Positions 86 to 24,817 are shown, counted from the first letter of the stretch. The stretch is DNA of 51,144 nucleotides from Nanobdellota archaeon (GCA_023140175.1 JAGLMD010000057.1:1-51144), one strand, 5' to 3'. The notes: generated from the sequence alone by a model not told the origin. Translations and numbers: made by a program.

Positions 86-586
86 ATGAAAACAATTGAT
101 GAATTGAAGAATGAGAAAGGAGAAATAGATAGCAATGCTGTCAAGCAGATTATACCTTATGAAAGGCCTTTTTTAATGATTGACCGTGTTCTAAGCCTGG
201 AAAAAAACAAGATAATAGCAATTAAAAATACAACAGCCAATGAAGAATTCTTTAAAGGCCATTTTGCAGGCTTTCCGATAATGCCGGGCGCTTTAATTAT
301 TGAGGGCATGGGCCAGGCAGCAACCCTAATGATAAGATATAATATTGAAAATCACCTGGAAAAAGAAGTTCTTGCATACAAGATAAAGGAAGCTAAATTT
401 ACTTTGCCAACTTTTCCAGGAGATCAGCTTAAATATGAAGTAGTTTTGCTTGGACAGGATGAACGAGGGGGCCTTGTAAGTGCAAAGGCATTTGTTGATG
501 ACAAGGTAGTTGCTGAGGCGCAGATGATGCTTGCTGTTGTTGACAGAAAAGAATTTCGCTCAAAAGCATCACCAGTATACAAATGA
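86..586 (+). CDS. fabZ: 3-hydroxyacyl-thioester dehydratase, FabZ family (hotdog fold)
   Basis: PFLMIDRV and FFKGHF..PIMPGALIIEGMGQ motifs with catalytic His/Glu; GGAGG SD upstream. Confidence 0.9.
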   Translation: MKTIDELKNEKGEIDSNAVKQIIPYERPFLMIDRVLSLEKNKIIAIKNTTANEEFFKGHFAGFPIMPGALIIEGMGQAATLMIRYNIENHLEKEVLAYKIKEAKFTLPTFPGDQLKYEVVLLGQDERGGLVSAKAFVDDKVVAEAQMMLAVVDRKEFRSKASPVYK

Positions 587-607
587 TTTTTTACGGTTCT
601 AATTACC

Positions 608-1750
608 ATGTCAGCTGAATCTATACCGGAAAGATATGTTAGGGGAGTGGGAATGGCTAAGTTTGGAGTAGATGATAGGCCGACATGGAGTATGTCCCAC
701 GAAGCTATTTCTCAGGCGCTTGATGATTCGGATATCAGCCTAAATAAGATTGATGCAGCAGTGGTTTCCACTGTGGATACGAAAATTAATGAAGAAAGGC
801 AAAGGCACTATCCCCCTCTTCTATCTTCTTTGCTCAGGAAAAAAATACCTATCATAAGGGTTCCTGCTGTCTGCGGTGGAGGGGGAGCAGCCTTTTGGTC
901 TGCTTTAAGGCTAAAATATGATAATGTGCTTGTTCTTGCAGTGGATAGCGTTTTATCAGGCCCAACACCAATAATCACAAACGAGATCATGAATGCTTCA
1001 GAAAATGTATGGGAGCAGCAGGAGGGCATGATTTTTCCGGCAATCAATGCACTTGTAGCACAGCAGCATTTTCTGAAATATGGCACAACCCATGACGATC
1101 TTGCATTGGTTTCATATAAAAACCATAGTTTCGGCGCTCTTAATCCAAAAGCAAGATTTTATGGCAAAAAGGTAAGCCTGGCTGAGATTAAGAGTTCTCC
1201 GGTAATAGCTTCACCATTTACATTATATGATTGTTCAATAAGTGTAAACGGCGCAGCCGCGGCCATAATTTCAAAAGACAAGACCGACATAAAAATCAAA
1301 GGATCTGCTTTAGCTACAGATTACATTGCTCCTTTTGAAAGGGATGACATGACAGTTTGGAATGCCACTGTAAAGGCAGGAGAAGGGGCATACAGGCAGG
1401 CAGGCATATCTCCCTCAGACCTTGATGTTGCAGAACTCCATGATGCTTTTACTATTATAGAGCTGATTGCATATGAAGACCTTGGCTGGTGTAAAAAAGG
1501 TGATTCAAAAAACCTGATAAGGGATGGTTTCACTTCATTAGATGGCAAATTGCCTGTAAATACTTCAGGCGGCCTTAAAGCAAAAGGCCACCCAATATCC
1601 CCAACAGGAATGGCTCAAATAGTTGAGATTATTGACCAATTAAGAGATAGATGTAATGATCGGCAGGTAACTTCTCCTAAATATGGCCTTGCCCATAATG
1701 TTGGCGGCCCGGGTGGAACAACAACAGTCCAGATTTTCAAAAAGGTATGA
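608..1750 (+). CDS. Archaeal/SCP2-type thiolase (acyl-CoA C-acyltransferase), copy 1
   Basis: GVGMAKFG start, active-site CGGGG, ELHDAF, NTSGGLKAKGHP, HNVGG motifs. Confidence 0.9.
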   Translation: MSAESIPERYVRGVGMAKFGVDDRPTWSMSHEAISQALDDSDISLNKIDAAVVSTVDTKINEERQRHYPPLLSSLLRKKIPIIRVPAVCGGGGAAFWSALRLKYDNVLVLAVDSVLSGPTPIITNEIMNASENVWEQQEGMIFPAINALVAQQHFLKYGTTHDDLALVSYKNHSFGALNPKARFYGKKVSLAEIKSSPVIASPFTLYDCSISVNGAAAAIISKDKTDIKIKGSALATDYIAPFERDDMTVWNATVKAGEGAYRQAGISPSDLDVAELHDAFTIIELIAYEDLGWCKKGDSKNLIRDGFTSLDGKLPVNTSGGLKAKGHPISPTGMAQIVEIIDQLRDRCNDRQVTSPKYGLAHNVGGPGGTTTVQIFKKV

Positions 1751-1765
1751 GTTAGGTGATAAGAG

Positions 1766-2893
1766 ATGGCTAAAATATTAAGATGGTTATGCGAAAAATG
1801 CAATAAGAAGTGGATTTACCCAATTGAGACATGTTTATACTGTAAAGGCAAAGTAAAGAAACAAATAGGAACAAAAACAAAAGTCATAGGCTACACAAAA
1901 GTCAGTATTCCAAGCCCATTACATCCTGTTATTCCTTATAATGTGCTTCTATTAGGGGATGAACATGGAAATAAGATGCCTAAGAAAACAATCAAAGACT
2001 ATAATGTTGGTGATTTATATGAAGATATTCCAGATTCTTCTGAGAATTCTATATCGGCTGTAAAGATAAAATATGATTATTATGAGGCTGTAAAGGAAGC
2101 ACTAGAGCTTATCGGAGATATAATTGTAGATGAAAATAAGAAAATCCTCGTGAAGCCAAATTTAAGCATACCTGGCTACTCTTACCTTGGTATGTGTACA
2201 AACCATAAACTCATGGATGCCCTTATTCAATTACTTCTTGATAAGGGGGCAAAAAAAGAAAACATAACAATAGCAGAGCAGTCCTTCTTTATGCCGCTGG
2301 AAAAAGCAGTAGCTAAAACAGGCACTCCAGAAATAATAAAAAAATATAGCATTAATTACGTAGATATCTCCAAAACAGAGTTTGAAGAAAAGAAAATAAG
2401 AGAATTCACATTTGAGATTTCTAAAATTGTAAATGACTTTGATGTAATCTTGAATGTTCCTGTAATAAAAACAGACATGCTTCTTGGCTTAGATGGCTCT
2501 TTTGAAAATCTTACAAGGTTCCTTTCAAAGAAGAATTTTGATGAGCTTGCAAAAGATCCGCAGAAAGCTGCATTGGCCCTAGCTGTTCTTCCTGGCTTAT
2601 TCCCAAAATTTATAACTATCGGAGATGCATCTATAGGCTTACAGGGAAATGGCCCTGCCCAATATGGAGAACCAGGTTACTATGATATAATATTTGTAGC
2701 AAGAAATCCTGTTGTTCATGACAGGGCAGTTCAGGAAGTTCTTTGCTTGAGAAAATTACCTTATGTAGAACTAGCATCTCAACTCGGCTCAGGCGAATAT
2801 GATATTTCAAAAATAAAATTTATAGGAAATGAATTAGAAGCTTTAAGACGAGACATAAAACAGCCAATTGGCTCAAAACTGATTAAGAAATGA
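1766..2893 (+). CDS. DUF35-like Zn-ribbon/OB-fold thiolase partner fused to a DUF362-like domain
   Basis: N-terminal CEKC...CLYC plus V.GYTKV...H...PY OB-fold pattern; C-terminal ILVKPNL and LNVPVIKT DUF362-like motifs; directly follows thiolase. Confidence 0.7.
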   Translation: MAKILRWLCEKCNKKWIYPIETCLYCKGKVKKQIGTKTKVIGYTKVSIPSPLHPVIPYNVLLLGDEHGNKMPKKTIKDYNVGDLYEDIPDSSENSISAVKIKYDYYEAVKEALELIGDIIVDENKKILVKPNLSIPGYSYLGMCTNHKLMDALIQLLLDKGAKKENITIAEQSFFMPLEKAVAKTGTPEIIKKYSINYVDISKTEFEEKKIREFTFEISKIVNDFDVILNVPVIKTDMLLGLDGSFENLTRFLSKKNFDELAKDPQKAALALAVLPGLFPKFITIGDASIGLQGNGPAQYGEPGYYDIIFVARNPVVHDRAVQEVLCLRKLPYVELASQLGSGEYDISKIKFIGNELEALRRDIKQPIGSKLIKK

Positions 2894-3069
2894 ACTATAT
2901 AAAGATATGTCCAAAATGTGGAAGCACTGATACAAAAATACCTAATGCAGGATTGGATATGAAGATGATCCTGGCAGATAAATGCTTAAATTGCGATTTT
3001 ATCGGTAATTTCCCGGAAGTAGAATCTGACAAAATAGAAGAATTCAAGGATAAAATAAAAAAACAATGA
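2890..3069 (+). CDS. 59-aa CPxCG Zn-ribbon microprotein (not in ORF track)
   Basis: Hand translation [59 protein letters not shown]; ATGA overlaps with both neighbours. Confidence 0.8.
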   Translation: MNYIKICPKCGSTDTKIPNAGLDMKMILADKCLNCDFIGNFPEVESDKIEEFKDKIKKQ

Positions 3070-4145
3070 CAGAAAAAATATTAATGAAAGGAAATGAAGC
3101 TATGTCTGCAGCAGCTGTAAAAGCAGGCTGTAAATTCTATGCAGGCTATCCTATCACTCCTCAAAATGAAGTTACCCAGTACCTTTCAAGAGAACTGCCT
3201 AAAGTCGGATCTGTATTTATTCAGGCAGAGTCTGAGCTGGCTGCCATCAACATGGTCTTTGGCGCTTCATCTACAGGAGCCAGGGCAATGACCTCTTCAT
3301 CAAGCCCCGGTATCAGTTTAAAGCAAGAAGGGATATCATATATCGCAGCTGCAGAGCTTCCTTGTGTTATTGTGAATGTAATGAGGGGCGGCCCTGGTTT
3401 AGGTAATATTATGGGTTCTCAGGGGGATTATTTTCAGGCTACTAAGGGAGGCGGCCACGGAGATTACAGGTTGATTGTGCTTGCTCCATCTTCAGTACAG
3501 GAAACGTACAACCTGACAATCATGGCTTTTGATTTGGCAGACAAATATCGTAATCCAGTCATGATTCTCACAGATGGTGTTCTTGCTCAGATGGCAGAAG
3601 CAATCGAACTAAAAGAACCCCCATCACACCACAATCTACCAAGAAAAGATTGGGCTTTAACAGGATGCAAAGGAAGAAAACCAAATGTGATAAAGACGCT
3701 TCACCTTTATCCTGCAGATGCCCTTGAAAAAGTGAATATAATGCTTGATAGGAAGTACAAAAAAATAGAAGATGAACTCCAAAAATGCGAAAAGATAAAT
3801 TGTGATGATGCGGATATTGTTGTAATAGCTTATGGCTTGCCTTCAAGAATCGGAAAGTCAGCAATAAAAAAAGCAAGACTAGACGGAATAAAAGCCGGCT
3901 TATTAAGGCCAATTACCCTGTGGCCATTTCCAAAAAAAGAAATTCAGGAAATCTCCAAAAAATGCAAAAAATTTCTTGTTGTTGAAATGAGTAACGGCCA
4001 GATGATAGAGGATGTAAAGCTCGCATTATATGAAAATGGCAATGAAATAGATATATCTTTTCTCGGAAGAGGCGGCGGCTGGTATCCAAAGCCGGAAGAA
4101 GTGTTGAACAAGATAAAAGAAGTTATTGGAAATGGAAAACAATAA
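3066..4145 (+). CDS. vorB: 2-oxoacid:ferredoxin oxidoreductase alpha subunit, Vor (2-ketoisovalerate) type
   Basis: [60 protein letters not shown]. Confidence 0.85.
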
Positions 4146-4872
4146 AGAAAATAAAGAAGCAACATTAAGGCAGGTAAAAATGCATTACTGTCCTGGCTGC
4201 GGCCATACAATAGCCCATAGGATAGTCGCTGATGTAATCGATGAATTAGGAATAAGGGAAAAGACGATAGGCTCTGCACCAGTGGGCTGTGCAGTTTTGT
4301 TGTATGATTATTTCAATTGTGATATTATTGAATGCCCTCATGGCAGAATACCTGCAGTTGCAACAGGAATAAAGAGAACCAACCCAGACAAAATAATTTT
4401 TGTTTATGGCGGCGATGGTGACTTACTCTCAATAGGGATGGCTGAAACAATACATGCTGCAAACCGCGGAGAGAATTTTACTGTTATATTTATTAATAAT
4501 GCAATCTATGGCATGACAGGCGGCCAGATGGCGCCAACAACTTTGATAGGCCAGAAAACAATAACAACCCAGGATGGCAGAGATGCCGACACAACAGGAA
4601 TGCCAATAAGGATATGCGAGATGCTTGCTACTTTGGGAAAGCCAGCTTACATCGAAAGAGTCGCTGTTAATGATGCTCAAAACATTGCAAGAGCAAAAAG
4701 CGCAATTAAAAAAGCATTCAAAAACCAGATAGAAGGAAAGGGGTTTTCTTTTGTTGAAGTATTATCAATGTGCCCGACAAATTGGAAGTTAAGTATAAAA
4801 GATGCATGTAGGTTTGTTAATAATGAAATGGCAGGTTATTTTCCTTTGGGCAAGTTTAGGGATATAGATTAA
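4132..4872 (+). CDS. 2-oxoacid:ferredoxin oxidoreductase beta (TPP-binding) subunit
   Basis: [12 protein letters not shown]...[21 protein letters not shown]; start could be 4126. Confidence 0.88.
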
Positions 4873-4874
4873 AT

Positions 4875-5426
4875 ATGAAAAAAATGGAAGAAAAAATTTT
4901 TATTGCAGGATATGGTGGGCAAGGAGTTGTTCTGGCAGGAAATATACTGGCATATGCAGCTTTAAAAGAAGACAAGAATATACTGGGGATGGTTTCTTAT
5001 GGCGCAGAAGTGCGTGGAGGAGCATCAAACAGCTCTGTAATTATATCAGATGACGAAATTGACTGTCCTATAATCGAAGAAGCAGAAATAGCCATTATTC
5101 TTAGCCAGGAATCCTATGATAAATTCCAGTCAAAAGTAAAGAAAAATGGTTTTTTGTTCTTAAATTCCTCAAAAGTCAACATTGACAAAAAAAGAGAAGA
5201 CATAACAATAGTTGAGATACCCGCAACAAAAATAGCCGCTGAAATGGGTAATGTACGGGTAGCTAATCTGGTACTTGTCGGTGCTTTGATAGAAAAAACA
5301 AAGATTCTTAAGAAAGAAAGCGTCATTTCAGCATTAAACATAATATTTTCAGGTGCCAGAAAGAATTTGGTATACATCAATGAATGTGCTGTTAAAAAAG
5401 GGATAGAACTTGCGGCCAATAATTAA
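4875..5426 (+). CDS. 2-oxoacid:ferredoxin oxidoreductase gamma subunit
   Basis: AGYGGQGV, SYGAEVRGG, ANLVLVGA motifs. Confidence 0.88.
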   Translation: MKKMEEKIFIAGYGGQGVVLAGNILAYAALKEDKNILGMVSYGAEVRGGASNSSVIISDDEIDCPIIEEAEIAIILSQESYDKFQSKVKKNGFLFLNSSKVNIDKKREDITIVEIPATKIAAEMGNVRVANLVLVGALIEKTKILKKESVISALNIIFSGARKNLVYINECAVKKGIELAANN

Positions 5427-5452
5427 ATAAATCATAATCGAGTTGAAATATC

Positions 5453-6580
5453 ATGTACATAAAAGGAGTAGGTATGACAAAGTTCGGAATTTCAGATAAA
5501 TTCTCGCATCAGCTGGCTTACGAAGCCACATTAAAAGCATTAAATGATGCTGATATGAATTTCAATGAAATAGATGCTGTTGTTTGTTCTTCATTGGAAT
5601 GGTTCTTCTCAGTTGAGAAGCAGAGGCATTTTGCAAGCATGCTCTCTTCAATGTTCAAGACAAATAAGCCCATAGTAAGGGTTCCTGCAGCGTGCGGCGG
5701 CAGCGGTGCAGCTTTGTGGTTTGCTAATCAGCTTGAATTCAATAATATTCTTGTTGTTGGCGCAGAAAAGCTCATGACTGGTAATTCAGAAGCAATTACA
5801 GATGAGTTTATGATGGCTGCTGAAAGCAAATGGGAGCAGACCCAAGGACTTATTTTTCCAGGGCAGAACGCTTTAGTTGCCCAGGAATATATGCTGAAAT
5901 ACCCGGAAACAACAACAGAGCATCTGGCTTTGATAGCATATAAGAATCATTCAAACGCACTGCTTAATCCTTATGCAAGATTTTACAAAACAGAAATTTC
6001 CTTAGATAAGATAAGAAACTCTCCTGTTGTTTGTTCTCCTTTAAGGCTTTTTGATTGCTCAATCTCAGCAGATGGAGCATCCGCAGCCATAATATCAAAA
6101 GACAAGACAGATATAAATATAATTGGCTCAGATCTCTCCACAGATTATCTGCCCACATTCGAAAGAGATGATAACACTTCATGGGATGCATCAACAATAA
6201 CTGCAAAAAATGCATATAAGCAGGCAGGAATAGGACCCTCAGATGTCGATGTCGCAGAGCTTCATGATGCCTTCACTAGTGTGGAATTGATAGCATACGA
6301 GGATCTAGGCTTTGCAGAAAAAGGCAAAGCCTATAAAAAAATAGAAGACGGCTACTTTAACTTAGACGGCAAATTGCCCATAAATACTTCAGGCGGCCTT
6401 AAAGCAAAAGGCCATCCAGTCTCAGCCACTGGCTTATCACAAATATATGAGTTAGTGAAACATTTAAGAAATGAAACAGGTGCCAGGCAGGTTCCTAATG
6501 CAAAGATAGGGTTAGCACAGAATATAGGCGGGGCAGGAGGCACAGTTTCTTGTCACTTATTAAGAAAAATAGGGGGTTAA
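5453..6580 (+). CDS. Archaeal/SCP2-type thiolase, copy 2
   Basis: ACGGSG active-site Cys, GAEKL, ELHDAF, SGGLKAKGHP, QNIGG; paralog of 608..1750. Confidence 0.9.
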   Translation: MYIKGVGMTKFGISDKFSHQLAYEATLKALNDADMNFNEIDAVVCSSLEWFFSVEKQRHFASMLSSMFKTNKPIVRVPAACGGSGAALWFANQLEFNNILVVGAEKLMTGNSEAITDEFMMAAESKWEQTQGLIFPGQNALVAQEYMLKYPETTTEHLALIAYKNHSNALLNPYARFYKTEISLDKIRNSPVVCSPLRLFDCSISADGASAAIISKDKTDINIIGSDLSTDYLPTFERDDNTSWDASTITAKNAYKQAGIGPSDVDVAELHDAFTSVELIAYEDLGFAEKGKAYKKIEDGYFNLDGKLPINTSGGLKAKGHPVSATGLSQIYELVKHLRNETGARQVPNAKIGLAQNIGGAGGTVSCHLLRKIGG

Positions 6581-6587
6581 GATAAAA

Positions 6588-7328
6588 ATGTCGTTTAAAG
6601 GAAAAAATGCGTTAATAACAGGTTCAGCTCGTGGTTTAGGAAAAGAAATGGCCATGGCCCTTGCAAGAGAAGGCAGCAATATCATCATCAATGATATCGA
6701 GCCTATGAAAGAAGAAGCATTAAAGACAGTCGAAGAAATAAAAAAACTGGGTGTAGAATCAGAATTTATTGCAGCAGATGTCTCTGATTTTGAGTCCTGT
6801 AAAAAAATGGCAGATGCCATAAAAGAAAAGTTCAAAGAAGTTCACATCCTTGTGAATAATGCAGGCATAACAAAAGACCGGACATTAAAAAAAATGTCAC
6901 CAGAAGAATGGTATCCTGTTATTAATGTGAATCTTAACTCTTTGTTCAATGTCACGAGAAATGTCCTTGAAATGATTCCGGATGAAGGCAGGATAATAAA
7001 TATAAGCTCTTTAGCTGGCATTTCTGGTAATTTTGGCCAGACAAACTATGCTAGTACAAAAGCAGGCGTTATCGGCTTCACTAAATCATTGGCAAAAGAA
7101 GTCGGAAAGAGAAAGATAACTGTAAATGCAGTTGCACCAGGCTTTATTAAATCGGCGATGACAGACAAAATACCATTAGAACTTTTGTCCAACATCTTGC
7201 AGCTTATTCCACTAAGAGAAATAGGCCAGCCAGAAGACGTTGCAAACGCAGTAAAATTCCTTGCCTCAGATGAAGCAAAATATGTGTCTGGAACAGTGAT
7301 AAAAGTGGACGGCGGAGTCAGTTTTTAA
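6588..7328 (+). CDS. fabG: 3-oxoacyl-thioester reductase (FabG/PhaB-like SDR)
   Basis: TGSARGLG, VNNAGITKD, GNFGQTNYASTKAG, VAPGFI. Confidence 0.9.
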   Translation: MSFKGKNALITGSARGLGKEMAMALAREGSNIIINDIEPMKEEALKTVEEIKKLGVESEFIAADVSDFESCKKMADAIKEKFKEVHILVNNAGITKDRTLKKMSPEEWYPVINVNLNSLFNVTRNVLEMIPDEGRIINISSLAGISGNFGQTNYASTKAGVIGFTKSLAKEVGKRKITVNAVAPGFIKSAMTDKIPLELLSNILQLIPLREIGQPEDVANAVKFLASDEAKYVSGTVIKVDGGVSF

Positions 7329-7369
7329 GCTTTGCTTGCTCTTTTGCTTCTTTTTTCTAAAAAAGAAGA

Positions 7370-7639
7370 TTATAGTGGAAAAAATAAATATTTATGTTCT
7401 TTATAGAATAACATGTATTTGTAATTTCTAATTATGTCAGCAAATTGTTTCTTTATTTCTTCTAAAAAATTTCTTAAATCTTGGATTGTTTTGATCTGAA
7501 CTTCTATTTCAATATCATCTCCTCCCAAAATTTCATTATCATAAGTTACGTTAAGATGTTGTCTTAGGTAAGATCTAAACTGTTTTTCTTTTTCTTCAAT
7601 TAAATTATGGAGATTAAAGTGGATTTTGATTATAATCAT
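7370..7639 (-). pseudogene. C-terminal fragment of an Lrp/AsnC-type regulator
   Basis: Resembles ligand-binding domain (ILGGDDIEIEV...LRNFLEEIKKQFADII..Y); no HTH, 5' part missing next to the TA/IS scar. Confidence 0.55.
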
Positions 7640-7756
7640 TTTTCCAGCCGCTTACTGTAGAAGGAGCTAAAATTTCGCTTTCTAAGTGTGCACATTTAGG
7701 GGTTCACTCCAAAGAACTAAAAATATTATTCCTAAACTCAATAACTTCATAGTAAT

Positions 7757-8131
7757 TCACTTCTTCTTGTATCCAAAAATCTTATCATATTTCTTATGAT
7801 CCATGAATTCCAGAACAAAAGCAATTATCTTGACTTCATCTCCAGAGATTGTATAAATCATTCTCCAATAGCCTACTAAATCAACTTTCCATAGTCTATC
7901 AGTTCCATAGCGATTAACAATAGCCTTAGAGACATTTCTTCTAGGAATGTGTATTCCATATTGAGGTTCAATTTTGATATTGTCCTTTTCTCTATCAATT
8001 GATTTTAGCAATTGCATATTAGATGAATTCTCAATACCCTGTCCCTTTTCTTGCAAGACTTTCTTCTGTAATTCCCTATAGTCGTTGTTAGCATCTTCAG
8101 AAAATTCCACCCATATTTCTTTGTTATGCAT
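7757..8131 (-). CDS. RelE/ParE-like toxin
   Basis: VEFSEDA start, LWKVDLVGYWRMIYTI, DHKKYDKIFGY tail; abuts upstream small DNA-binding gene. Confidence 0.65.
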   Translation of the reverse strand: MHNKEIWVEFSEDANNDYRELQKKVLQEKGQGIENSSNMQLLKSIDREKDNIKIEPQYGIHIPRRNVSKAIVNRYGTDRLWKVDLVGYWRMIYTISGDEVKIIAFVLEFMDHKKYDKIFGYKKK

Positions 8132-8404
8132 TTATGCCACCCTAACTGCATTCTTTAACAAATCCTTTAATTTTGGACTAGGATTATTAACCCAGGTTAT
8201 GCCTCTTGAACCAATTATAATTTTACCGCTATTTTCCAAATACTCCAAAATTAAATTTAAAGTCTGATGCATAATCTGAGTAGGGAGTCTTCTTTTTAAT
8301 TCTGCTTTAGATACCACTGTATCTGATTCTTGTATAATCTTCTCAACAATTAAAACAGTCCTTAGATTGGGGTAATGTAAAATTTGATTTTGCATTTTTC
8401 TCAC
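8132..8404 (-). CDS. Winged-helix protein, putative antitoxin
   Basis: PNLRTVLIVE...LKRRLP..IMHQTLNLILEYLE.SGKI wHTH-like pattern; immediately upstream of toxin; start may be a few codons downstream. Confidence 0.65.
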   Translation of the reverse strand: MRKMQNQILHYPNLRTVLIVEKIIQESDTVVSKAELKRRLPTQIMHQTLNLILEYLENSGKIIIGSRGITWVNNPSPKLKDLLKNAVRVA

Positions 8405-8407
8405 TAA

Positions 8408-8447
8408 TTATATAAGTTTATATATGTATAAGTTTATATAATATTTA
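8408..8447 (-). promoter_or_regulatory. TA promoter/operator: two copies of near-palindromic TATAAGTTTATATA
   Basis: ttatataagtttatatatgtataagtttatataata directly upstream of the antitoxin. Confidence 0.5.
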
Positions 8448-8478
8448 AATCTTTCGTTAATTTTTCTCTCTTTTTGTC

Positions 8479-8665
8479 GGTTCTCTTCACATCAACGAAT
8501 GATAACTTCTAAGCATAAACCTCTTCTCTTTTTATTGGATTATTAAATCAACAATGATAAGAAAGTAATATTTTGCTTTACTCCTGCTTTCATAGCAGGA
8601 GTAATCCCTCCAAGGCTGCTCTTAGAGCAAAGAAGTTCCTGTGCATCTCATAGGGCTTATCATAA
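8479..8665 (-). mobile_element. Degenerate IS remnant (DDE transposase C-terminus plus probable terminal IR, IS6-like)
   Basis: Minus strand reads YEMHRNFF then, after a frameshift, SLGGITPAMKAGVK (TPA..AG transposase tail); GGTTCTCTTCACA at 8479 resembles IS6-type GGTTCTGTTGCA ends. Confidence 0.5.
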
Positions 8666-8932
8666 AATGCCCCGGATTTTCTTATAATAGTAAATGCAAA
8701 TGCAGATCTAATAGCCTCAAGAGCAAAAAAAGACAGCAATGGGATATTTGACAATCTCTTCTTCCAGAGAAGAATAGAAGAACGTTTTGAATCAGGATGG
8801 TTAAAACAGATATTTGAAAGATTTGGCTCAAAAGTCCTCTATTTAGATGGAAATTGCTCAATCTCAGAACTGAAAGAAAAGGCTTTAAAACTGTTTAAGG
8901 ATTATGTTTTAGAAGGCCAGAAAACCCTATGA
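8666..8932 (+). pseudogene. 3' remnant of a thymidylate-kinase-like gene
   Basis: Start-less open frame NAPDFLIIV...IFDNLFFQRRIEERFESGWLKQIFERFGSKVLYLDG...QKTL*, beginning exactly at the IS remnant edge. Confidence 0.5.
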
Positions 8933-8997
8933 TTCTTTTTATATTCACCCCCCAAAACCTTTATAAATTACACTAATTTTCAACTCAAGAGGGGAAA

Positions 8998-10152
8998 ATG
9001 GACTTTAACTTCACTAAAAAACAACACCTGCTAAAGCAGACTATAGATGAATTCTGTGAAAAAGAGATAGTTCCATATGCAGATGATATTGACCATGAGC
9101 AGATATTCCCGGAAAAGCAGATAAAACTTCTTTCAAAGATGGGCATAATGGGTATGTCTATTCCAAAAGAATATGGCGGCGCGGAATTAGATAATGTTTC
9201 CCAGACAATAATAATGGAAGCAGTCTCAAAAGCCTGCGCCTCTACCTCTGTAACCATGGGTGCTCATACTTCATTAACTTGCTTTCCATTGGTTGCTTAT
9301 GGCACAAAGGACCAGAAACAAAGATTTCTTCCAAAGCTTGCATCTGGCGAATATCTGGGAGCATTCGCTCTTACAGAGCCAAACGCAGGCTCAGACGCAT
9401 CTAATGTAGAAACAACAGCTGTAAAAGACGGCGATGAATATATCATAAACGGCTCAAAGATATTCATAACTAACGGTGGTAAAGCAGATTTAATAAATAT
9501 AGTAGCTACAACAGACAAATCAAAAAAGCACCACGGCATATCAATCTTCACAGTAGAAACAAAAAAGGCAAAAGGATTTGAGATTGGCAAAAAAGAAGAC
9601 AAATTAGGCCTGAGAGGCTCAAATACCAACGAGATAATATTCAAAGATATGCGCCTTCCCAAAGAAAACCTTGTCGGCGGCATAGAAGGGATGGGTTTCA
9701 AGATAGCTATGGGTGTATTTGATTCAGGAAGAATTGGCATAGGTGTTCAGGGAGTAGGTATTGCTCAGGCAGCTTTTGATAAGGCTTTGCAGTATGTCAA
9801 TGAAAGAGAACAATTCGGAAGAAAACTTGCTAAATTCCAGGCAATGCAATTCTATTTAGCAGATATGGCAACAAGGATAGAGGCAGCCAGGTTGCTTTGT
9901 TATAAAGCAGCTTTCATAAAAGATCAAAAGAAAAAATATGCCCAGGTTGCAGCCATGGCCAAGCTTTATGGCTCTGAAGTTGCAATGTATTGTTCAAGGC
10001 TTTCTTTGCAGATTCATGGCGGTTACGGATTCATAAAAGATTATCCATTAGAAAGATTCTATAGAGATGCAAAAATAACAGAAATATATGAAGGGACATC
10101 AGAGATAATGAAGCTGGTTATAGCTGCCAATTTATTGGGAAAGGGATTCTAA
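8998..10152 (+). CDS. bcd: Short-chain acyl-CoA dehydrogenase (butyryl-CoA dehydrogenase-like)
   Basis: FALTEPNAGSDA, NGSKIFITNG, REQFG, QIHGGYG, IYEGTSE catalytic Glu. Confidence 0.92.
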   Translation: MDFNFTKKQHLLKQTIDEFCEKEIVPYADDIDHEQIFPEKQIKLLSKMGIMGMSIPKEYGGAELDNVSQTIIMEAVSKACASTSVTMGAHTSLTCFPLVAYGTKDQKQRFLPKLASGEYLGAFALTEPNAGSDASNVETTAVKDGDEYIINGSKIFITNGGKADLINIVATTDKSKKHHGISIFTVETKKAKGFEIGKKEDKLGLRGSNTNEIIFKDMRLPKENLVGGIEGMGFKIAMGVFDSGRIGIGVQGVGIAQAAFDKALQYVNEREQFGRKLAKFQAMQFYLADMATRIEAARLLCYKAAFIKDQKKKYAQVAAMAKLYGSEVAMYCSRLSLQIHGGYGFIKDYPLERFYRDAKITEIYEGTSEIMKLVIAANLLGKGF

Positions 10153-10932
10153 ATGAAAATAGTAGTATGTATGAAACAAGTACCAGATACAAATGAGATT
10201 AAGATAGATCAAAAAACAGGCACCTTGCAGAGAGAAGGCGTTCCTTCGATCATGAACCCAGAAGATAAGCATGCTTTATTAGCAGCATTAAATATAAAAG
10301 ACGCAGAAGTAATTGCACTATCAATGGGCCCACCTCAAGCTGAGATGATCTTAAGAGAAGCCCTTGCATACGGAGCAAACAAAGCCATCTTATTATGCGA
10401 TTTTGCCTTCGCAGGCTCAGACACAGCCGCAACATCATATACATTATCTAAAGCAATTGAAAAAATAAATCCAGATTTAATAGTATGTGGAAGACAGGCC
10501 ATTGATGGCGACACAGCGCAAGTAGGCCCGCAAATAGCCGAACTCCTGAATTTACCCCAAGCAACCTATGTTCAAAAGATAATAAAACTGGATAATGAAA
10601 AAGTAGAAATCCAGAAAGAAACAGAAATAGGCTATGATATAATGGAGCTAAATCTGCCGGCATTAATAACCTGTACCAATGACATATCAGAGATTGATTA
10701 TCCAAGCTTGCAGGGAATAAGCAAAGCATTCGAAGAAAACATAGAAACATGGAAAGCCACAGACTTGAAAGCAGATAAAGAAAGGCTTGGATTAAATGGT
10801 TCCCCTACCTGGGTAAACAAATCATTCACTCCCACTCATCAAAGACAAGGCAATATCCTTAAAGGCAATGTCAAGGAATTAGCTAAACAATTGGCAAAAG
10901 AATTCATCAGAAAAGAAATTGTAAAGGAATAA
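10153..10932 (+). CDS. etfB: Electron transfer flavoprotein beta subunit
   Basis: KQVPDT, SMGPPQA, FAGSDT.AT, GRQAIDGDTAQVG, GL.GSPT.V. Confidence 0.93.
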   Translation: MKIVVCMKQVPDTNEIKIDQKTGTLQREGVPSIMNPEDKHALLAALNIKDAEVIALSMGPPQAEMILREALAYGANKAILLCDFAFAGSDTAATSYTLSKAIEKINPDLIVCGRQAIDGDTAQVGPQIAELLNLPQATYVQKIIKLDNEKVEIQKETEIGYDIMELNLPALITCTNDISEIDYPSLQGISKAFEENIETWKATDLKADKERLGLNGSPTWVNKSFTPTHQRQGNILKGNVKELAKQLAKEFIRKEIVKE

Positions 10933-10933
10933 A

Positions 10934-12094
10934 ATGAAAATAAAATTATCAATAAATTACCCCTCTTCAGAGCTTCATATAGGCAATGGTATATTAATAA
11001 ATAAGGAATCTGATTGGTTAGAAGTCGAGGAAACCAAAGAAATCAAAGAAGCAATAGAAAAAGGATTTCTTGAATATGAAGGCAAATTAGAAAAAAAAGA
11101 AGAAAAAAAGGAAAAATCAGATAAAGATGAAATATGGATCTTCGCAGAAGCATTACATGGAAAATTAGCAAGGGTTGTTCTCGAATTATTGGGCAAGGGA
11201 AAAGAGCTTGCAGATTCCCTTAATGTTAAGTTATCTGTAATATTATTGACAGATAAGGACAATTATTCAAAAGAGCTGATTAGCTATGGCGCAGATAAAG
11301 TATATATTCTGGAAAATCCTCTTCTTAAAAACTATGATACTAACTTATTCGCAAAAGTAATTACAGAAGCAATAAAAAATTATGCACCCCAAATAGTTCT
11401 TTACGGCGCTACCCATATTGGCCGTGATCTAGCTCCAAGAATAGCAAGAAGACTTGATACTGGCTTGACAGCAGACTGTACTGGCTTAGATATAACTGAG
11501 AATAATGAGCTATTACAGACCCGGCCGGCTTTCGGTGGTAATCTGATGGCACAGATTTTGTGTAAAAAAAGGCCGCAGATGTCAACTGTCAGGCCAGGCG
11601 TTATGCAGATCATTCCTCAAGATAAAGACAAGAAAGGAGAAATAATCAAACTTGAAATAAAAATTTCTGAATCCGACTTAAGTACAAGATTAAAAGAATC
11701 AGTGAAATCTGCAAAAAAAGTAATTAACCTTGAAGAAGCAGAAATTATTGTATCAGGCGGCCGTGGTCTCTCATCACAAGAGAACTTCCATAAGCTCATA
11801 CCAGCATTTGCAAAAGTCCTTAATGCAGAAATAGGTTCATCAAGGGCAGCTGTTGATGCGGGCTGGATAGAAAAACCGCACCAGGTAGGTCAGACAGGAA
11901 AGACAGTAAGGCCAAAAGTCTATATTGCCTGCGGAATAAGTGGGGCAATACAGCATCGTGCAGGAATGCAGGATTCAGATTTAATCATAGCAATAAATAA
12001 AGATCCATCTGCACCAATATTCAAGATTGCAGATTATGGTTTCGTAGCTGACATAAATGAGTTTATCCCGGCATTCATAGAATCATTGAAATAA
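10934..12094 (+). CDS. etfA: Electron transfer flavoprotein alpha subunit with N-terminal extension
   Basis: GLTADCT, TRPAFGGN, QVGQTGKTVRP, GISGAIQH, INKD..APIF. Confidence 0.93.
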   Translation: MKIKLSINYPSSELHIGNGILINKESDWLEVEETKEIKEAIEKGFLEYEGKLEKKEEKKEKSDKDEIWIFAEALHGKLARVVLELLGKGKELADSLNVKLSVILLTDKDNYSKELISYGADKVYILENPLLKNYDTNLFAKVITEAIKNYAPQIVLYGATHIGRDLAPRIARRLDTGLTADCTGLDITENNELLQTRPAFGGNLMAQILCKKRPQMSTVRPGVMQIIPQDKDKKGEIIKLEIKISESDLSTRLKESVKSAKKVINLEEAEIIVSGGRGLSSQENFHKLIPAFAKVLNAEIGSSRAAVDAGWIEKPHQVGQTGKTVRPKVYIACGISGAIQHRAGMQDSDLIIAINKDPSAPIFKIADYGFVADINEFIPAFIESLK

Positions 12095-12096
12095 AA

Positions 12097-12756
12097 ATGG
12101 CATATCCTTTTGCAAAAATTTTTCTTGGTAGTTTTATAAGGTTATACATGCGAAAGACAACAGGCATAGAGAATATTCCAAAAAACAAAGCATATATCGT
12201 AGCTCCAAACCATTCAAGCTATGCTGATGATCTTATTGCACCATATACTATGATAGCATATGGAAAAAAGAAGCTGCATATTTTTGTTAACTCAAGATTC
12301 TACAAAAATTTTTTTTTAATAAAATTACTGGATCATTTCGGCTGCATCAGGGTTGATGTAAGCAAAGATGTAAAAGACGAAGAAAAAAGAAAAAAGACAA
12401 ATGAAAAAGCATTTAAGATTGCCCTGGAAGGCCTTAAAAATGGTGATATTCTCATTATATTTCCAGAAGGAGGAAGAAGCCAAAACGGAAAATTGAAAAA
12501 AGCAAAAACAGGGATTGCTAAAGCAGCACTGGCTGCAAAGGTGCCTGTTCTGCCAATGGGTATAAAAGGTTCATATGAAATTATGCCAAAAGGCGCAAAA
12601 CTCCCTAAATTTAAGAAGGCAGATATTATAATCGGCAAGCCGATGTATTTTGATAAATATTATGGAAAAGAGAAAGATTATAAAACACTCGAGACAGTTA
12701 CCACATTGATCATGAAGGAAATCGCAAAGTTAACAAATCAGGATTATAATTATTAA
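12097..12756 (+). CDS. plsC: PlsC-family lysophospholipid acyltransferase, copy 1
   Basis: NHSSYAD (HX4D) and FPEGGRS motifs. Confidence 0.88.
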   Translation: MAYPFAKIFLGSFIRLYMRKTTGIENIPKNKAYIVAPNHSSYADDLIAPYTMIAYGKKKLHIFVNSRFYKNFFLIKLLDHFGCIRVDVSKDVKDEEKRKKTNEKAFKIALEGLKNGDILIIFPEGGRSQNGKLKKAKTGIAKAALAAKVPVLPMGIKGSYEIMPKGAKLPKFKKADIIIGKPMYFDKYYGKEKDYKTLETVTTLIMKEIAKLTNQDYNY

Positions 12757-12757
12757 A

Positions 12758-13399
12758 ATGGCATACCAAATAACAAGCAGGGTTATTTCACTTCTAATTA
12801 AGCCATGGACAGGGCTGTGTACAGGAATCCATAATATACCTGCTGATAAAGGTGTTATCCTTGCTGCAAACCATTCATCTTATCTTGACCATTTTATCGT
12901 AGGCTGTAGTATCTTTCTAAACCTGAATAAAGCTGCATATTATCTTGCTAAGAAAGAGCACTTTGATACATTTTTCCAAAGAAAATGGCATCAATTCCTG
13001 CCAGCCATACCTATAGATAGGGAAACATGCGGCAGAGAAGCATTATCAAAAGCAGTAGAACATCTCAAGAAAGGGAATTTAATTATGATATATCCAGAGG
13101 GAACAAGAACCATTACAGGTAAGATGAATCGTGCTAAAACAGGAGTAGCAAGATTAGCATTAGCCGCAAAAGCCCCGGTAATACCCATGGGTATTACAAA
13201 TACCTTCAAAATTTGGCCCAAGGAAAAAAAAATACCCAGATTTGGAAAGAAAGCAGATTTAAATATAGGAAATCCGCTTTATTTCGATAAATACTATGGA
13301 AAAGATGATGACAAAAAAGCATTGAGAAAAGTAACAACACTAATAATGAATGAAATAGCAAAACTTTCGCATCAAAAATATGAATTCGATCAGGAATAA
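12758..13399 (+). CDS. plsC: PlsC-family lysophospholipid acyltransferase, copy 2
   Basis: NHSSYLD (HX4D) and YPEGTRT motifs. Confidence 0.88.
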   Translation: MAYQITSRVISLLIKPWTGLCTGIHNIPADKGVILAANHSSYLDHFIVGCSIFLNLNKAAYYLAKKEHFDTFFQRKWHQFLPAIPIDRETCGREALSKAVEHLKKGNLIMIYPEGTRTITGKMNRAKTGVARLALAAKAPVIPMGITNTFKIWPKEKKIPRFGKKADLNIGNPLYFDKYYGKDDDKKALRKVTTLIMNEIAKLSHQKYEFDQE

Positions 13400-13404
13400 C
13401 TAAA

Positions 13405-14388
13405 ATGAAAATAGCAATCATTGGTGCAGGAAGCTGGGGCACAACCCTGGCAAATCTTTTGGCAGAAAACAATCCTGATAAAGAAGTTATTTTATGGGCC
13501 AGAGAAACAGAGGTTATAGATTCTATAGAAAATGAAAATGAAAATGAATTATTCTTACCAGGGATAAAACTCTCAGAAAACCTAAAATCAACCGCAGACT
13601 TAGAAAAAGCTGTTTCAGATGCAGATATATTAGTCACAGCGATTCCATCTCAGTTTCTAAGGGAAAAAGCCAAAGAAATAAACAAATATATTAAAGAAAA
13701 CTCTATAATAGTAAATGTAGCAAAGGGATTTGAAATTGATACTTTTAAGAGGATGTCTGAAATATTGAAGGAAGAGCTTCCTCCATCAATTAAAATTGCA
13801 GTTCTCTCCGGCCCAAATCATGCTGAAGAAGTTAGTAGAAAAATCCCAACAGCCACAGTAATAGCCTCAACAGAAACTGATTTAGAAAATCTCAGGAAGA
13901 TTTTTGAGACAGATTATTTCAAAGTATATGCCCATGATGATGTCATTGGCTTAGAAGTTTGTGCTGCAGTAAAGAACATTACTGCAATCGCAACAGGAGT
14001 TATTGCAGCTCTTGGTTTAGGTGATAATGCAACTGGTTCAATAATAACTCTTGGCCTAAGAGAAATGGTCAGATTAGGCAGGCACTTAGGCGCAAGACAG
14101 GAAACATTCTATGGTTTAGCAGGAGTGGGCGACTTAGTAGCTACATGCACATCCAAACTCTCAAGAAATAGAAAAGCAGGTAATTTAATCACAAAAGGCC
14201 TCGATGCTGAAGGAATAATGGAAGCTATGCATGGTATGGTAGCAGAAGGAATAATGACATCTAAGGCAGTCCATGAATATGCAGAAAAAAATAAACTCTA
14301 TTTACCATTGACAGCCCAGGTATATAGCGTTCTTTTTGAAAAAAAAGAATTAAACCAGGCAATAACTGACTTAAAAAAATTAATATAA
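13405..14388 (+). CDS. gpsA: NAD(P)H-dependent glycerol-3-phosphate dehydrogenase
   Basis: GAGSWGT, LSGPNHAEEV, KN..AIA.G, GLAGVGDLVATC.S..SRN, VAEG. Confidence 0.95.
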   Translation: MKIAIIGAGSWGTTLANLLAENNPDKEVILWARETEVIDSIENENENELFLPGIKLSENLKSTADLEKAVSDADILVTAIPSQFLREKAKEINKYIKENSIIVNVAKGFEIDTFKRMSEILKEELPPSIKIAVLSGPNHAEEVSRKIPTATVIASTETDLENLRKIFETDYFKVYAHDDVIGLEVCAAVKNITAIATGVIAALGLGDNATGSIITLGLREMVRLGRHLGARQETFYGLAGVGDLVATCTSKLSRNRKAGNLITKGLDAEGIMEAMHGMVAEGIMTSKAVHEYAEKNKLYLPLTAQVYSVLFEKKELNQAITDLKKLI

Positions 14389-14405
14389 TAATTGTAATAT
14401 AACAA

Positions 14406-15005: not shown

Positions 15006-15135
15006 CTTAATTCCTCCTCAAAATTACAATATATCTGCCCTATATTTTTATGACCTCGATAAGGCAATTGCAAGGCTTCAAGTATCAGCTTTGCCTTCGG
15101 TAATATCTCTTAGAAATCAATTTCCTTTTATAAAA

Positions 15136-17464: not shown

Positions 17465-17498
17465 TTTTATAAAATATAATAATATAAAAGGTGAGAAT

Positions 17499-24808: not shown

Positions 24809-24817
24809 ACATAAACA

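Follow-up and report, generated by a model that had tools for sequence, protein, structure and literature searches.

A candidate acyl-carrier-protein-free fatty-acid synthase encoded beside bacterial-type phospholipid genes in a Woesearchaeales archaeon

The lipid divide sets the isoprenoid ethers of sn-glycerol-1-phosphate (G1P) found in archaea against the fatty-acid esters of sn-glycerol-3-phosphate (G3P) found in bacteria, and it is central to ideas about early cell evolution and the archaeal origin of eukaryotes. Here we analyse a gene cluster that bears on it, located at positions 86 to 14,388 of a 51,144-nucleotide stretch of DNA (the window) from a Nanobdellota archaeon (GCA_023140175.1 JAGLMD010000057.1:1-51144). 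The window is the entire contig C138 of a 2.07-Mb, 184-contig genome with a GC content of 34.7%, scored 100% complete and 0.42% contaminated. From gene content, we regard it as fairly probable that the cluster encodes a thiolase-driven fatty-acid synthase that works on coenzyme A (CoA) thioesters without acyl carrier protein (ACP) and feeds the G3P dehydrogenase GpsA and two PlsC-family acyltransferases, yielding phosphatidic acid. The original prediction, a hybrid CoA-based synthase feeding ester lipids, finds support as a genomic hypothesis in our checks of the contig, the gene content and the synteny.

Bacterial-type GpsA and PlsC were reportedly noted in uncultured archaea by Villanueva et al. 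in 2017. As far as the available text of the published surveys goes, GpsA and PlsC homologues occur in Marine Group II/III, Lokiarchaeota and some DPANN archaea, where they are read as horizontal gains, with GpsA in Woesearchaeota, PlsC in DPANN and no surveyed archaeon holding all bacterial homologues (Coleman 2019, PMC6431249). In equally partial texts, some Woesearchaeota are credited with bacterial fatty-acid genes, including a G3P dehydrogenase, near genes of the methylerythritol phosphate (MEP) route (Castelle 2021, PMC8204110), the bacterial MEP route itself is reported for Woesearchaeota (Castelle 2021, PMC8204110; Zhang 2024, PMC10936187), and FabG, FabI and FabZ are listed for DPANN metagenome-assembled genomes (MAGs) (Zhang 2024, PMC10936187). 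On the bacterial side, the accessible part of Probst 2020 (PMC7242380) describes the candidate phyla radiation (CPR) as devoid of fatty-acid and membrane-lipid synthesis, and gives Nealsonbacteria (Parcubacteria) near-complete fatty-acid and phospholipid genes with no ACP machinery, raising an ACP-independent route; DPANN, in turn, are said to be unable to make lipid building blocks in the portion seen of Ding 2025 (PMC11868695). An ACP-independent synthase is described in the available text on Sulfolobus acidocaldarius: it comprises the ketothiolase Saci_1121, the DUF35 protein Saci_1120, the short-chain dehydrogenase/reductase (SDR) Saci_1104, the MaoC protein Saci_1085 and an enoyl-CoA reductase using NADPH, represented by the deletion mutant Delta-saci_1115 (10.1101/2024.07.05.601840). 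The survey in that text (Schmerling 2024) names Crenarchaeota, Thaumarchaeota, Thermoplasmatota and Asgard archaea, not DPANN (10.1101/2024.07.05.601840).

How does the present locus compare? The comparison uses what is established here, namely gene identities, their order, their conservation, the predicted fold of one fusion protein and the genes not found in the genome. Identities come from calls of open reading frames (ORFs) and profile searches with Pfam and NCBIfam, and all pathway genes lie on the + strand:

86-586, + strand: FabZ-type (R)-3-hydroxyacyl dehydratase, hotdog fold (PF07977 94.5 bits; NF000582 132.8 bits, cut-off 113)
608-1750, + strand: thiolase 1, archaeal DUF35-partnered / SCP2-thiolase type (Thiolase_C_1 152.9 bits)
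1766-2893, + strand: DUF35/DUF362 fusion protein (PF04015 80.2 bits; AlphaFold2 and Foldseek)
2890-3069, + strand: 59-aa zinc-ribbon ORF with a CPxC...CxxC motif (CPKC...CLNC), seen in the sequence and overlapping both neighbouring genes
3066-4145, + strand: 2-oxoacid:ferredoxin oxidoreductase (VOR) alpha subunit, VorB-type (NF005507 VorB 537.7 bits, cut-off 399)
4126-4872, + strand: VOR beta subunit
4875-5426, + strand: VOR gamma subunit
5453-6580, + strand: thiolase 2, paralogue of thiolase 1 (Pfam and NCBIfam thiolase matches)
6588-7328, + strand: FabG-type SDR 3-ketoacyl reductase (TIGR01830 299.4 bits, cut-off 297.75)
7370-8404, - strand: insert with three small ORFs (89, 124 and 90 aa), none with a Pfam family at E <= 0.001
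8998-10152, + strand: Bcd-type acyl-CoA dehydrogenase, putative enoyl-CoA reductase (three Acyl-CoA_dh domains)
10153-10932, + strand: EtfB (best match 6fah_B CarD, 251.9 bits)
10934-12094, + strand: EtfA (nearest AcrA, 375.8 bits)
12097-12756, + strand: PlsC-family acyltransferase 1, HX4D motif at His39 (PF01553 88.2 bits)
12758-13399, + strand: PlsC-family acyltransferase 2, tandem paralogue (PF01553 96.1 bits)
13405-14388, + strand: GpsA, NAD(P)H-dependent G3P dehydrogenase (NF000942 388.9 bits, cut-off 257; both GpsA Pfam domains)
14406-15005, - strand: archaeal-type ribosomal protein uS2, a conserved anchor next to gpsA (TIGR01012 247.2 bits, cut-off 211.5)

Every gene family that had been named is present at its predicted position, order and strand, and the tight packing of both blocks holds as well, with intergenic spacing of -20 to +27 nt inside each block. 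The VOR genes (3066-5426) carry TPP_enzyme_C and POR domains (Pfam). The predicted zinc-finger gene corresponds to the 59-aa ORF at 2890-3069, for which a Pfam search up to E = 10 gave nothing significant. Of the features described, only the toxin-antitoxin/insertion-sequence scar between the blocks was not borne out as such. The insert itself is real, being supported by reads in this population and missing from relatives such as locus L018, where fabG directly adjoins bcd; its proposed nature is unconfirmed, as Pfam up to E = 10 returned only ParE_toxin (E = 0.048) and winged-helix (E = 0.0057) matches for its ORFs and no transposase was seen there. We set aside a toxin-antitoxin identity because the ParE match is too weak. 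The insert is lineage-specific, splits the cluster and lies outside the pathway.

The locus resembles the Sulfolobus synthase in its CoA thioester substrates, predicted here from gene content, in the pairing of an archaeal thiolase with a DUF35-fold protein, in its SDR ketoreductase and (R)-specific hotdog dehydratase, and in lacking a ketoacyl-ACP synthase (KAS). It departs from it in that the dehydratase is FabZ-type rather than MaoC, the candidate reductase is Bcd/EtfAB (FabK-type in CPR bacteria) rather than a stand-alone NADPH-dependent enoyl-CoA reductase, the DUF35 domain shares one protein with a DUF362/LarA-like domain, and the thiolase is present as a pair of paralogues. Unlike in Sulfolobus, moreover, the genes share one operon with gpsA and two plsC in a host in which G1P dehydrogenase (G1PDH) and geranylgeranylglyceryl phosphate synthase (GGGPS) were not found, and it is this operon that would direct the product to glycerolipid. 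The combination of a thiolase with bifurcating-type Bcd/EtfAB recalls the clostridial Thl-Hbd-Crt-Bcd/EtfAB pathway, and Bcd and EtfB of the window are closest to 5ol2, 4kpu and 6fah; unlike in that pathway, Hbd was not found and FabG/FabZ take its place, the thiolase is DUF35-partnered, and acyltransferases and GpsA are co-operonic. FabG and FabZ (TIGR01830 and NF000582 passed) are shared with the bacterial type II synthase, whose ACP and KAS/FabH were not found, FabD and AcpS being left unsearched. Similarly, GpsA and the PlsC motifs match the bacterial G3P route to phosphatidic acid, whereas no dedicated G3P acyltransferase was found (PlsX was not searched). Two thiolase-fold proteins flank the DUF35 gene, as in the Methanothermococcus complex of thiolase, 3-hydroxy-3-methylglutaryl-CoA (HMG-CoA) synthase (HMGCS) and DUF35 protein (6esq/6et9), PhlABC (5m3k), BbsAB (7pxp) and MucABC (9vbt). 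Unlike in the 6esq-type complexes, the genome has neither HMG-CoA synthase nor HMG-CoA reductase, the two partners are both genuine thiolases, paralogous to each other and with the nucleophilic Cys retained, and DUF35 carries an additional LarA-like domain.

In contrast to the single genes surveyed in the available text of Coleman 2019, gpsA and tandem plsC belong here to the same operon as a complete set of elongation genes that needs no ACP. Outside the supplementary material (Castelle 2021 Table S4, Probst 2020, Schmerling Figs S32-36), which the text covered does not include, we found no description of the operon architecture, the DUF35/DUF362 fusion, Bcd/Etf or FabK as reductase, the tandem PlsC, the uS2 anchor or a cluster shared by CPR and DPANN. 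To judge from the same text, the gene families had been noted before in Woesearchaeota, parts of the idea can be found in all four of Castelle 2021, Coleman 2019, Probst 2020 and Zhang 2024, and the architecture is new. The CPR parallel and the fold assignment are added by this analysis.

In the pathway that we propose, a self-contained one leading from acetyl-CoA as far as phosphatidic acid, the two thiolases would condense acyl-CoA with acetyl-CoA while bound to the fusion protein through its DUF35 domain, FabG would convert the 3-ketoacyl-CoA to (R)-3-hydroxyacyl-CoA, and FabZ would dehydrate the latter. The bifurcating-type Bcd/EtfAB would then reduce the enoyl-CoA with NADH, an exergonic step that would pull the unfavourable thiolase condensation. 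GpsA would supply G3P from dihydroxyacetone phosphate, and the PlsC pair would use acyl-CoA, one member as G3P acyltransferase and the other as lyso-phosphatidic acid acyltransferase. Outside the cluster, a CarS-family cytidylyltransferase and a fused double PgsA/Cls-like enzyme would carry phosphatidic acid through CDP-diacylglycerol to phosphatidylglycerol or cardiolipin. The VOR would be an accessory that supplies branched-chain acyl-CoA primers, or else acetyl-CoA and reduced ferredoxin; one may speculate that ilvC, ilvD, an ilvE-type gene and leuB nearby make branched-chain 2-oxoacids available to it. It is from gene content that we infer how each step is catalysed, that the substrates are CoA thioesters, how long the chains become, how the PlsC proteins share their work and that CarS acts on diacyl phosphatidate.

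All four elongation activities are encoded, each by the only gene of its type in the genome except for the two thiolases. When the window proteins were searched back against the genome, every cluster gene proved single-copy; within each pair, thiolase or PlsC, the only paralogue of either member is the other, and the PF01553 genes of the genome are just the two in the window. Both thiolases, which are 54% identical, have 7yvy and 6esq/6et9 as best solved relatives, the latter being the thiolase of the archaeal thiolase/HMGCS/DUF35 complex, and both score 328-335 bits on NF004720, under its cut-off of 420. Cys89, His278 and His328 of thiolase 1 are invariant in 6 orthologues, and Cys81, His271 and His321 of thiolase 2 in 7; we take these to be the nucleophilic Cys and the His of the catalytic motifs. 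By similarity, both thiolases are assigned to the archaeal DUF35-partnered class. FabG is nearly as close to acetoacetyl-CoA reductase (TIGR01829, 262 bits, under its cut-off), and FabZ passes one of two FabZ models while falling below the other (TIGR01750, 130.3 versus 155.15 bits).

The best solved relative of Bcd is 5ol2_C (430.5 bits), its counterpart in the bifurcating complex from Clostridioides difficile. The top relatives of EtfB are bifurcating Etf, namely CarD (6fah_B, 251.9 bits) and those from C. difficile (5ol2_B, 232.7 bits) and Acidaminococcus (4kpu_B, 189.7 bits), compared with 79-89 bits for the non-bifurcating human and Paracoccus Etf. The N-terminal extension of EtfA (66 residues) gave nothing significant with Pfam up to E = 10, and as it contains no Cys it is not a ferredoxin domain. 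On these similarities the Etf falls in the bifurcating group, with the gene for its Bcd partner adjacent. The two PlsC are 42% identical, have Thermotoga PlsC (5kym) as nearest structure and start about 45 residues later than it; they carry HSSYAD and PEGGRS (PlsC 1) and HSSYLD and PEGTRT (PlsC 2), which we take to be the HX4D and PEG(G/T)R motifs of the PlsC family.

The gene at 1766-2893 had been called DUF35/DUF362, a call that is right by fold, not by Pfam models. Pfam sees only DUF362 in the protein (residues 127-322) and finds nothing significant up to E = 10 in the first 110 residues, and a profile of the protein gave no sequence match in the PDB below E = 0.26. Its relatives number 1558 at E <= 0.001 among 1.84 billion representatives; full-length ones align from query residue 4-7, plain DUF362 proteins from near residue 100. 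To judge from its sequence, the protein begins with ~100 residues in which a zinc ribbon precedes a domain rich in beta structure. The AlphaFold2 model, built from a 70-sequence alignment, has a pLDDT of 95.3 and a pTM of 0.93. With Foldseek against the PDB, these ~100 residues match the DUF35 chains BbsA 7pxp_E (E = 8.3e-5, TM-target 0.50), ChsH2 6ok1_D, PhlB 5m3k_E and 3irb_B, as well as 6esq_E (TM-target 0.49), which is the DUF35 protein in the thiolase/HMGCS complex from Methanothermococcus; the probability to DUF35 chains is 1.00, with TM (target) values of 0.41-0.51. The C-terminal part matches members of the LarA family (7s91, E = 2.4e-6; 6d6z, 2yjg, 9q3j). LarA-family racemases are nickel-pincer enzymes. 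As modelled, then, the protein is an N-terminal zinc ribbon and OB domain of the DUF35 fold followed by DUF362 with a LarA-like fold. In alignment A2, the N-terminal domain is present in 39 of 70 sequences, 35-37 of which keep the four zinc-ribbon Cys; of the 70, 14 carry 4Fe-4S ferredoxin domains and 4 match Lar_N. DUF362 has the look of a LarA-related redox family, one whose catalysis has perhaps been lost in the fusion.

What else does the genome offer for making lipids? In six-frame family searches of all contigs, there was no match to ACP (PP-binding, PF00550), KAS (ketoacyl-synt, PF00109), FabH (ACP_syn_III_C, PF08541) or PlsY, so that in a genome scored 100% complete the searches suggested for acpP and fabF/H bear out the ACP-free character of the cluster. 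A dedicated G3P acyltransferase (PlsB, PlsX/PlsY) was likewise not found, the only PF01553 genes being the two short PlsC paralogues, with PlsX itself left unsearched. HMG-CoA synthase and HMG-CoA reductase gave no match genome-wide, which leaves no mevalonate route for the thiolases to feed. G1PDH and GGGPS, for which a search had been suggested, were likewise not found genome-wide, the sole Fe-ADH_2 match being AroB and the PcrB matches being HisF/HisA only. As neither was found, no archaeal lipid cores would be made de novo, and the canonical archaeal set for G1P ether lipids is incomplete (G1PDH, GGGPS and HMG-CoA reductase not found, CarS present). Marine Group II and Lokiarchaeota presumably differ from this host, which is without GGGPS as well as G1PDH. 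The search for digeranylgeranylglyceryl phosphate synthase (DGGGPS) yielded only a weak UbiA gene, at 67-82 bits against cut-offs of 269-353.

Of the head-group genes suggested, a PgsA-type gene is present, whereas for CdsA nothing was found genome-wide apart from a CarS-type cytidylyltransferase. The CarS-family gene (NF003114, 156.5 bits, cut-off 148) directly adjoins one whose 363-aa product contains two CDP-alcohol transferase domains; the pair lies at C161:15731-17376 = L085:248-1893, and the 363-aa protein scores 233 bits on the PgsA model TIGR00560 (cut-off 109) and 147 bits as ClsA-like; two further PIP-synthase-like genes are encoded. IspH (296 bits) adjoins a polyprenyl synthase (C112:6874-8600), and IspH, the only MEP-route gene looked at, together with the missing HMG-CoA reductase appears to point to the MEP route. 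Biotin carboxylase and BirA are encoded at C79:128-2687, and an acyl-CoA carboxyltransferase (626.7 bits), biotin carboxyl carrier protein (BCCP) and BioY at C137:5011-7581, so malonyl- or methylmalonyl-CoA could be made by this genome. A cyclopropane fatty-acid synthase, considered as an independent sign of fatty-acyl membranes, was rejected, the matches being to generic methyltransferases at 44 bits or less.

The archaeal origin of the contig, a point on which the original prediction asked for confirmation, is borne out by several markers. An archaeal signal recognition particle RNA lies at 27151-27425(-) (132 bits), the tryptophan--tRNA ligase in the window scores 524.7 bits on NF008927 (cut-off 478), and uS2, which lies 17 nt past gpsA on the opposite strand, fits the archaeal/eukaryotic model TIGR01012. 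We found 505 relatives of this uS2 among species-representative genomes; the best 80 are 66-81% identical and come from MAGs labelled Woesearchaeota, Nanoarchaeota or Nanoarchaeia, apart from some third-party annotation records labelled 'Methanosarcinales', a label that is doubtful given their neighbours in the list.

The arrangement is conserved among these relatives. We counted matches by tblastn of the window proteins against the loci of the best 80 of the 505 uS2 relatives (query cover >= 50%, E <= 1e-10); the counts are lower bounds, many loci ending inside the cluster. Nineteen loci have gpsA within 10 kb of uS2 and 19 have plsC matches, 18 of them shared with gpsA, so synteny across DPANN genomes, as had been proposed for checking, is conserved. 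Further matches are to fabG in 16/80 loci (one a 24% match, probably unrelated), thiolases in 15/80 (two of them distant non-cluster thiolases), the DUF362 gene in 9/80, bcd, etfB and etfA in 8/80 each, and fabZ in 7/80. The string in relatives reads fabG-bcd-etfB-etfA-plsC-plsC-gpsA, with bcd-etf flanked by lipid genes. The vor genes lie where they had been placed and are found in the cluster in only 2-3 of the 80 loci; the VOR is an accessory module, not part of the core.

In some of the Woesearchaeal loci, an S-adenosylmethionine-dependent methyltransferase accompanies the cluster, either fused to FabG (L003, 563 aa, 13247-14938) or encoded between thiolase 2 and FabG (L011, 15058-16023), and L003 has a second SDR between the gene for the methyltransferase-FabG fusion and the thiolase. 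These enzymes may give methyl-branched products, or the additional SDR may be an enoyl reductase.

Across the order, we examined an even sample of 201 Woesearchaeales genomes that includes the present one as well as genomes flagged unpublished (G132 among the 17 triad genomes below; G112, G121 and G183 in wider lists). The GpsA C-domain occurs in 52/201 genomes, the PF01553 acyltransferase in 86/201, CarS at E <= 1e-10 in 98/201 (31 over the cut-off), PP-binding in 35/201, a G1PDH-like protein at E <= 1e-20 in 8/201 (none over the cut-off) and GGGPS at E <= 1e-15 in 1/201. A triad of gpsA and two adjacent plsC on one contig, identified by coordinates, is present in 17 of the 201 genomes. CarS accompanies it in 14 of these 17, compared with 84 of the 184 others, and 14 of the 17 are without a PP-binding match, the remaining three having one inside a 736-aa fusion and two in weak small ORFs. 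None of the 17 has a G1PDH-like match. We rejected the idea that GpsA is distributed in a manner complementary to G1PDH/GGGPS, as both are rare order-wide (8/201 and 1/201) regardless of gpsA; their absence is therefore a trait of the order, not specific to carriers of the cluster.

Many Woesearchaeales without the cluster have ORFs of ~720-880 aa in which a PP-binding (ACP-like) domain lies directly upstream of PF01553 (for example G019:C3:20375-21124, G001:C14, G068:C53 and G102:C15). Presumably these resemble Aas-type enzymes, which re-acylate lysophospholipids with outside fatty acids, and by analogy they represent a possible lipid-salvage route.

Leads from the ESM Atlas, which holds DUF362 clusters of Woesearchaeota and Minisyncoccota, extend the comparison to CPR bacteria. 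With P0017, a full-length homologue of the fusion protein (30% identical), we retrieved 22 loci (L105-L126), each belonging to Patescibacteria, Parcubacteria or Paceibacterota or to a MAG with the label Saccharibacteria. By tblastn with the window proteins, these contain thiolase (16/22 loci, 50-59% identical), FabG (18/22, 47-53%), FabZ (14/22, 35-42%) and PlsC (11/22), and none of the 22 has GpsA, Bcd or Etf. The one locus annotated with Pfam, L105 (4598-16872), encodes a CarS-like protein, thiolase, DUF359/cytidylyltransferase (opposite strand), UppS, DUF35/DUF362, BioY, FabG, a FabZ::NMO (FabK-type) fusion, a second NMO, two PlsC, biotin carboxylase, BCCP and biotin ligase. With L105 proteins as queries, the FabZ-NMO fusion was found in 10/22 loci, the second NMO in 11/22, the CarS-like protein and AccC in 8/22 each, BCCP in 6/22 and BirA in 4/22; the genome of the window has no NMO homologue. 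Bcd/EtfAB in the archaeal string would thus stand in the place of the FabK of CPR. The CarS of the window's genome is 44% identical to the CPR CarS-like protein, and the CarS-like genes in CPR clusters, along with the CarS/PgsA pair, suggest that a CarS-type enzyme may serve diacyl lipids. With a complete elongation cycle, lipid assembly and a different enoyl reductase, the CPR cluster appears to amount to an independent parallel.

To place the thiolases, we built a maximum-likelihood tree of 37 sequences, comprising the two of the window and those from ORFs of 102 loci (cover >= 80%, E <= 1e-30; none dropped), with no outgroup beyond two non-cluster thiolases. Fifteen CPR thiolases form one clade (SH-aLRT 100) in a polytomy with three Woesearchaeal clades (the thiolase-1 type, the thiolase-2 type and a third), and the two distant non-cluster thiolases stand apart. 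A single inter-domain transfer, in one direction or the other, would be enough to account for this tree.

Beyond the cluster, the organism is well equipped for a DPANN archaeon: the window carries leuB, ilvC, ilvD, a class-IV (branched-chain type) aminotransferase and a full trp operon of trpE, trpGD, trpCF, trpB and trpA (16328-18500, 23159-26662 and 32837-39593), and AroB/DAHP synthase and hisA/hisF are on other contigs. The window also encodes a 425-aa serpin (21581-22858, -; PF00079, 401 bits) and, at 42133-46572 (+), a 1479-aa ORF that is probably a large surface protein; a PQQ-like beta-propeller takes up its N-terminal ~375 residues and matches 3hxj as well as designer propellers based on a protein of the cell surface.

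Could the cluster be a bacterial fragment joined to an archaeal contig by assembly or binning? Most cluster genes do best match bacterial-type families, and CPR thiolases are 50-59% identical to those of the window. Yet the gpsA/uS2 junction is bridged with zero mismatches by contigs from two additional runs within the same study (X2 13660-14550, X3 14138-15500), GC content is uniform along the window, Woesearchaeota and CPR cluster thiolases fall in separate clades, and the gpsA-uS2 neighbourhood recurs in 19/80 Woesearchaeota loci from many studies. Because this neighbourhood and the cluster genes recur in related loci, the junction at 14388-14406, where a chimera had been named as a danger, is not an assembly product; we give this explanation next to no credence, and for practical purposes assembly chimerism is excluded. 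A more serious alternative, which we still consider unlikely, is that the genes serve a fermentative reverse beta-oxidation, producing butyrate or medium-chain acids from acetyl-CoA and 2-oxoacids (through VOR) for redox balance and ferredoxin reduction, with GpsA/PlsC merely remodelling host lipids. It would fit the resemblance of Bcd and Etf to clostridial butyryl-CoA dehydrogenase complexes and short-chain acyl-CoA dehydrogenases, the VOR inside this genome's cluster, the usual portrayal of DPANN, in those parts of the literature seen, as fermenters that take host lipids, and the presence of PF01553 genes in 52 of the 149 genomes of the order that have no gpsA, many of these genes being the salvage-like PP-binding fusions of ~800 aa. 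What it fails to account for is that Hbd (3-hydroxyacyl-CoA dehydrogenase), the classical partner, was not found over the cut-off genome-wide and (R)-specific FabG/FabZ occur instead, that bcd-etf lie between lipid genes in one tight string in relatives, and that most loci have the core cluster without bcd-etf and VOR. Nor do the CPR versions follow a fermentative logic: a string with its own FabK-type enoyl reductase, fused to FabZ, and with CarS and two PlsC is hard to reconcile with fermentation. In addition, the only AMP-forming acyl-CoA ligase genome-wide is AcsA (1065 bits), with no long-chain ligase or acyl-ACP synthetase to charge scavenged fatty acids (PlsX was not searched); hence there is no evident way to activate fatty acids from outside.

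The same lack of a long-chain ligase speaks against a catabolic role, in which the enzymes would carry out an (R)-specific beta-oxidation with Bcd/Etf as dehydrogenase, and G3P released from bacterial phospholipids of the host would enter glycolysis through GpsA. The four core reactions and GpsA are reversible in principle, and a beta-oxidation with an acyl-CoA dehydrogenase is described in the available text on Sulfolobus (10.1101/2024.07.05.601840); against this, there is no 3HCDH-type dehydrogenase in the genome and no lipase or phospholipase in the cluster, the Etf is of the bifurcating group, and the acyltransferases and FabZ/FabG are anabolic-type enzymes, so that we rate catabolism as highly improbable. 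Finally, the pathway might have a minor or non-membrane role, such as protein acylation, biotin or lipoate precursors, a polyester like polyhydroxyalkanoate (PHA) or a minor lipid, the bulk membrane being scavenged archaeal lipid given new head groups by CarS and the CDP-alcohol transferases. For this speak the trace amounts of fatty acids in Sulfolobus, where a specialised role is proposed in the text available, the retention of CarS, the weak DGGGPS-like UbiA (82 bits versus 269-353), polyprenyl synthase and IspH, the spread of CarS through the order irrespective of gpsA, and the genes for BioY, BirA and biotin carboxylase. On the other hand, 18/80 loci have gpsA and two plsC in one operon with the synthase, pointing to glycerolipid, GGGPS and G1PDH for de novo archaeal cores were not found, and the cluster, the only place searched for it, has no PHA synthase gene; we see a minor role as improbable.

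A synthase that feeds ester phospholipids remains the reading we prefer, and a number of points weigh against it. What we doubt most is the chain length, since the closest resemblance of Bcd is to short-chain (C4-C6) enzymes, with short-chain acyl-CoA dehydrogenases ranking next after 5ol2_C, and the cycle might stop at butyryl- or hexanoyl-CoA. To our knowledge, thiolase-only elongation to C14-C18 has been shown in no organism. Use of diacyl phosphatidate by CarS is a further doubt; the CarS from Archaeoglobus is reported not to accept it. CarS is also common in Woesearchaeales without gpsA and may serve scavenged archaeal lipids. Both PlsC fall under the TIGR00530 cut-off (63.7 and 82.3 versus 102.95 bits), and acceptance of G3P by a PlsC paralogue, a role assigned from gene content, is in doubt. 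Only 8 of the 19 gpsA-bearing loci have bcd-etf in the cluster, and related genomes are not independent samples. AccC, BCCP and carboxyltransferase may indicate an involvement of malonyl-CoA that lies outside our model. As for the fusion protein, the Pfam DUF35 models (PF01796, PF12172) match neither it nor any of its 70 homologues, and we know of no function for the DUF362 domain. In A2, moreover, 28 of 31 unfused proteins but only 11 of 39 fused ones retain the His in the 'KTH' motif of DUF362, and the window protein has Asp at this position (residue 237); the frequent loss of this His hints that the fused DUF362 domain is a scaffold rather than an enzyme. The products of the Sulfolobus pathway are mainly C8-C10, in pmol/mg amounts, according to the text available (10.1101/2024.07.05.601840).

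Taken further, and on a footing we hold to be somewhat short of even, the cluster may be a portable ACP-free module for fatty acids and phospholipids, common to CPR bacteria and DPANN archaea and consisting of FabG, FabZ, thiolase, the fusion protein, two PlsC, a CarS-type CDP-diacylglycerol synthase and an exchangeable enoyl reductase (Bcd/Etf or FabK). A bacterial-type diacyl-G3P phospholipid would then be the only membrane lipid that the Woesearchaeales carriers make themselves, CarS, an archaeal enzyme, would have taken on diacyl phosphatidate, and the part of the LarA-like DUF362 in elongation would be catalytic or scaffolding. If this is true, an archaeon would stand on the bacterial side of the lipid divide, and a subset of two supposedly lipid-auxotrophic radiations would build their own membranes. 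The operon, compact, conserved and complete-looking and matched by a counterpart in CPR bacteria, offers a clonable set of 10-13 genes that bears on ester lipids made by such organisms themselves, on the building of long-chain fatty acids on CoA by thiolases only and on the use of CarS-type enzymes for diacyl lipids, and it gives the DUF362 family a working context.

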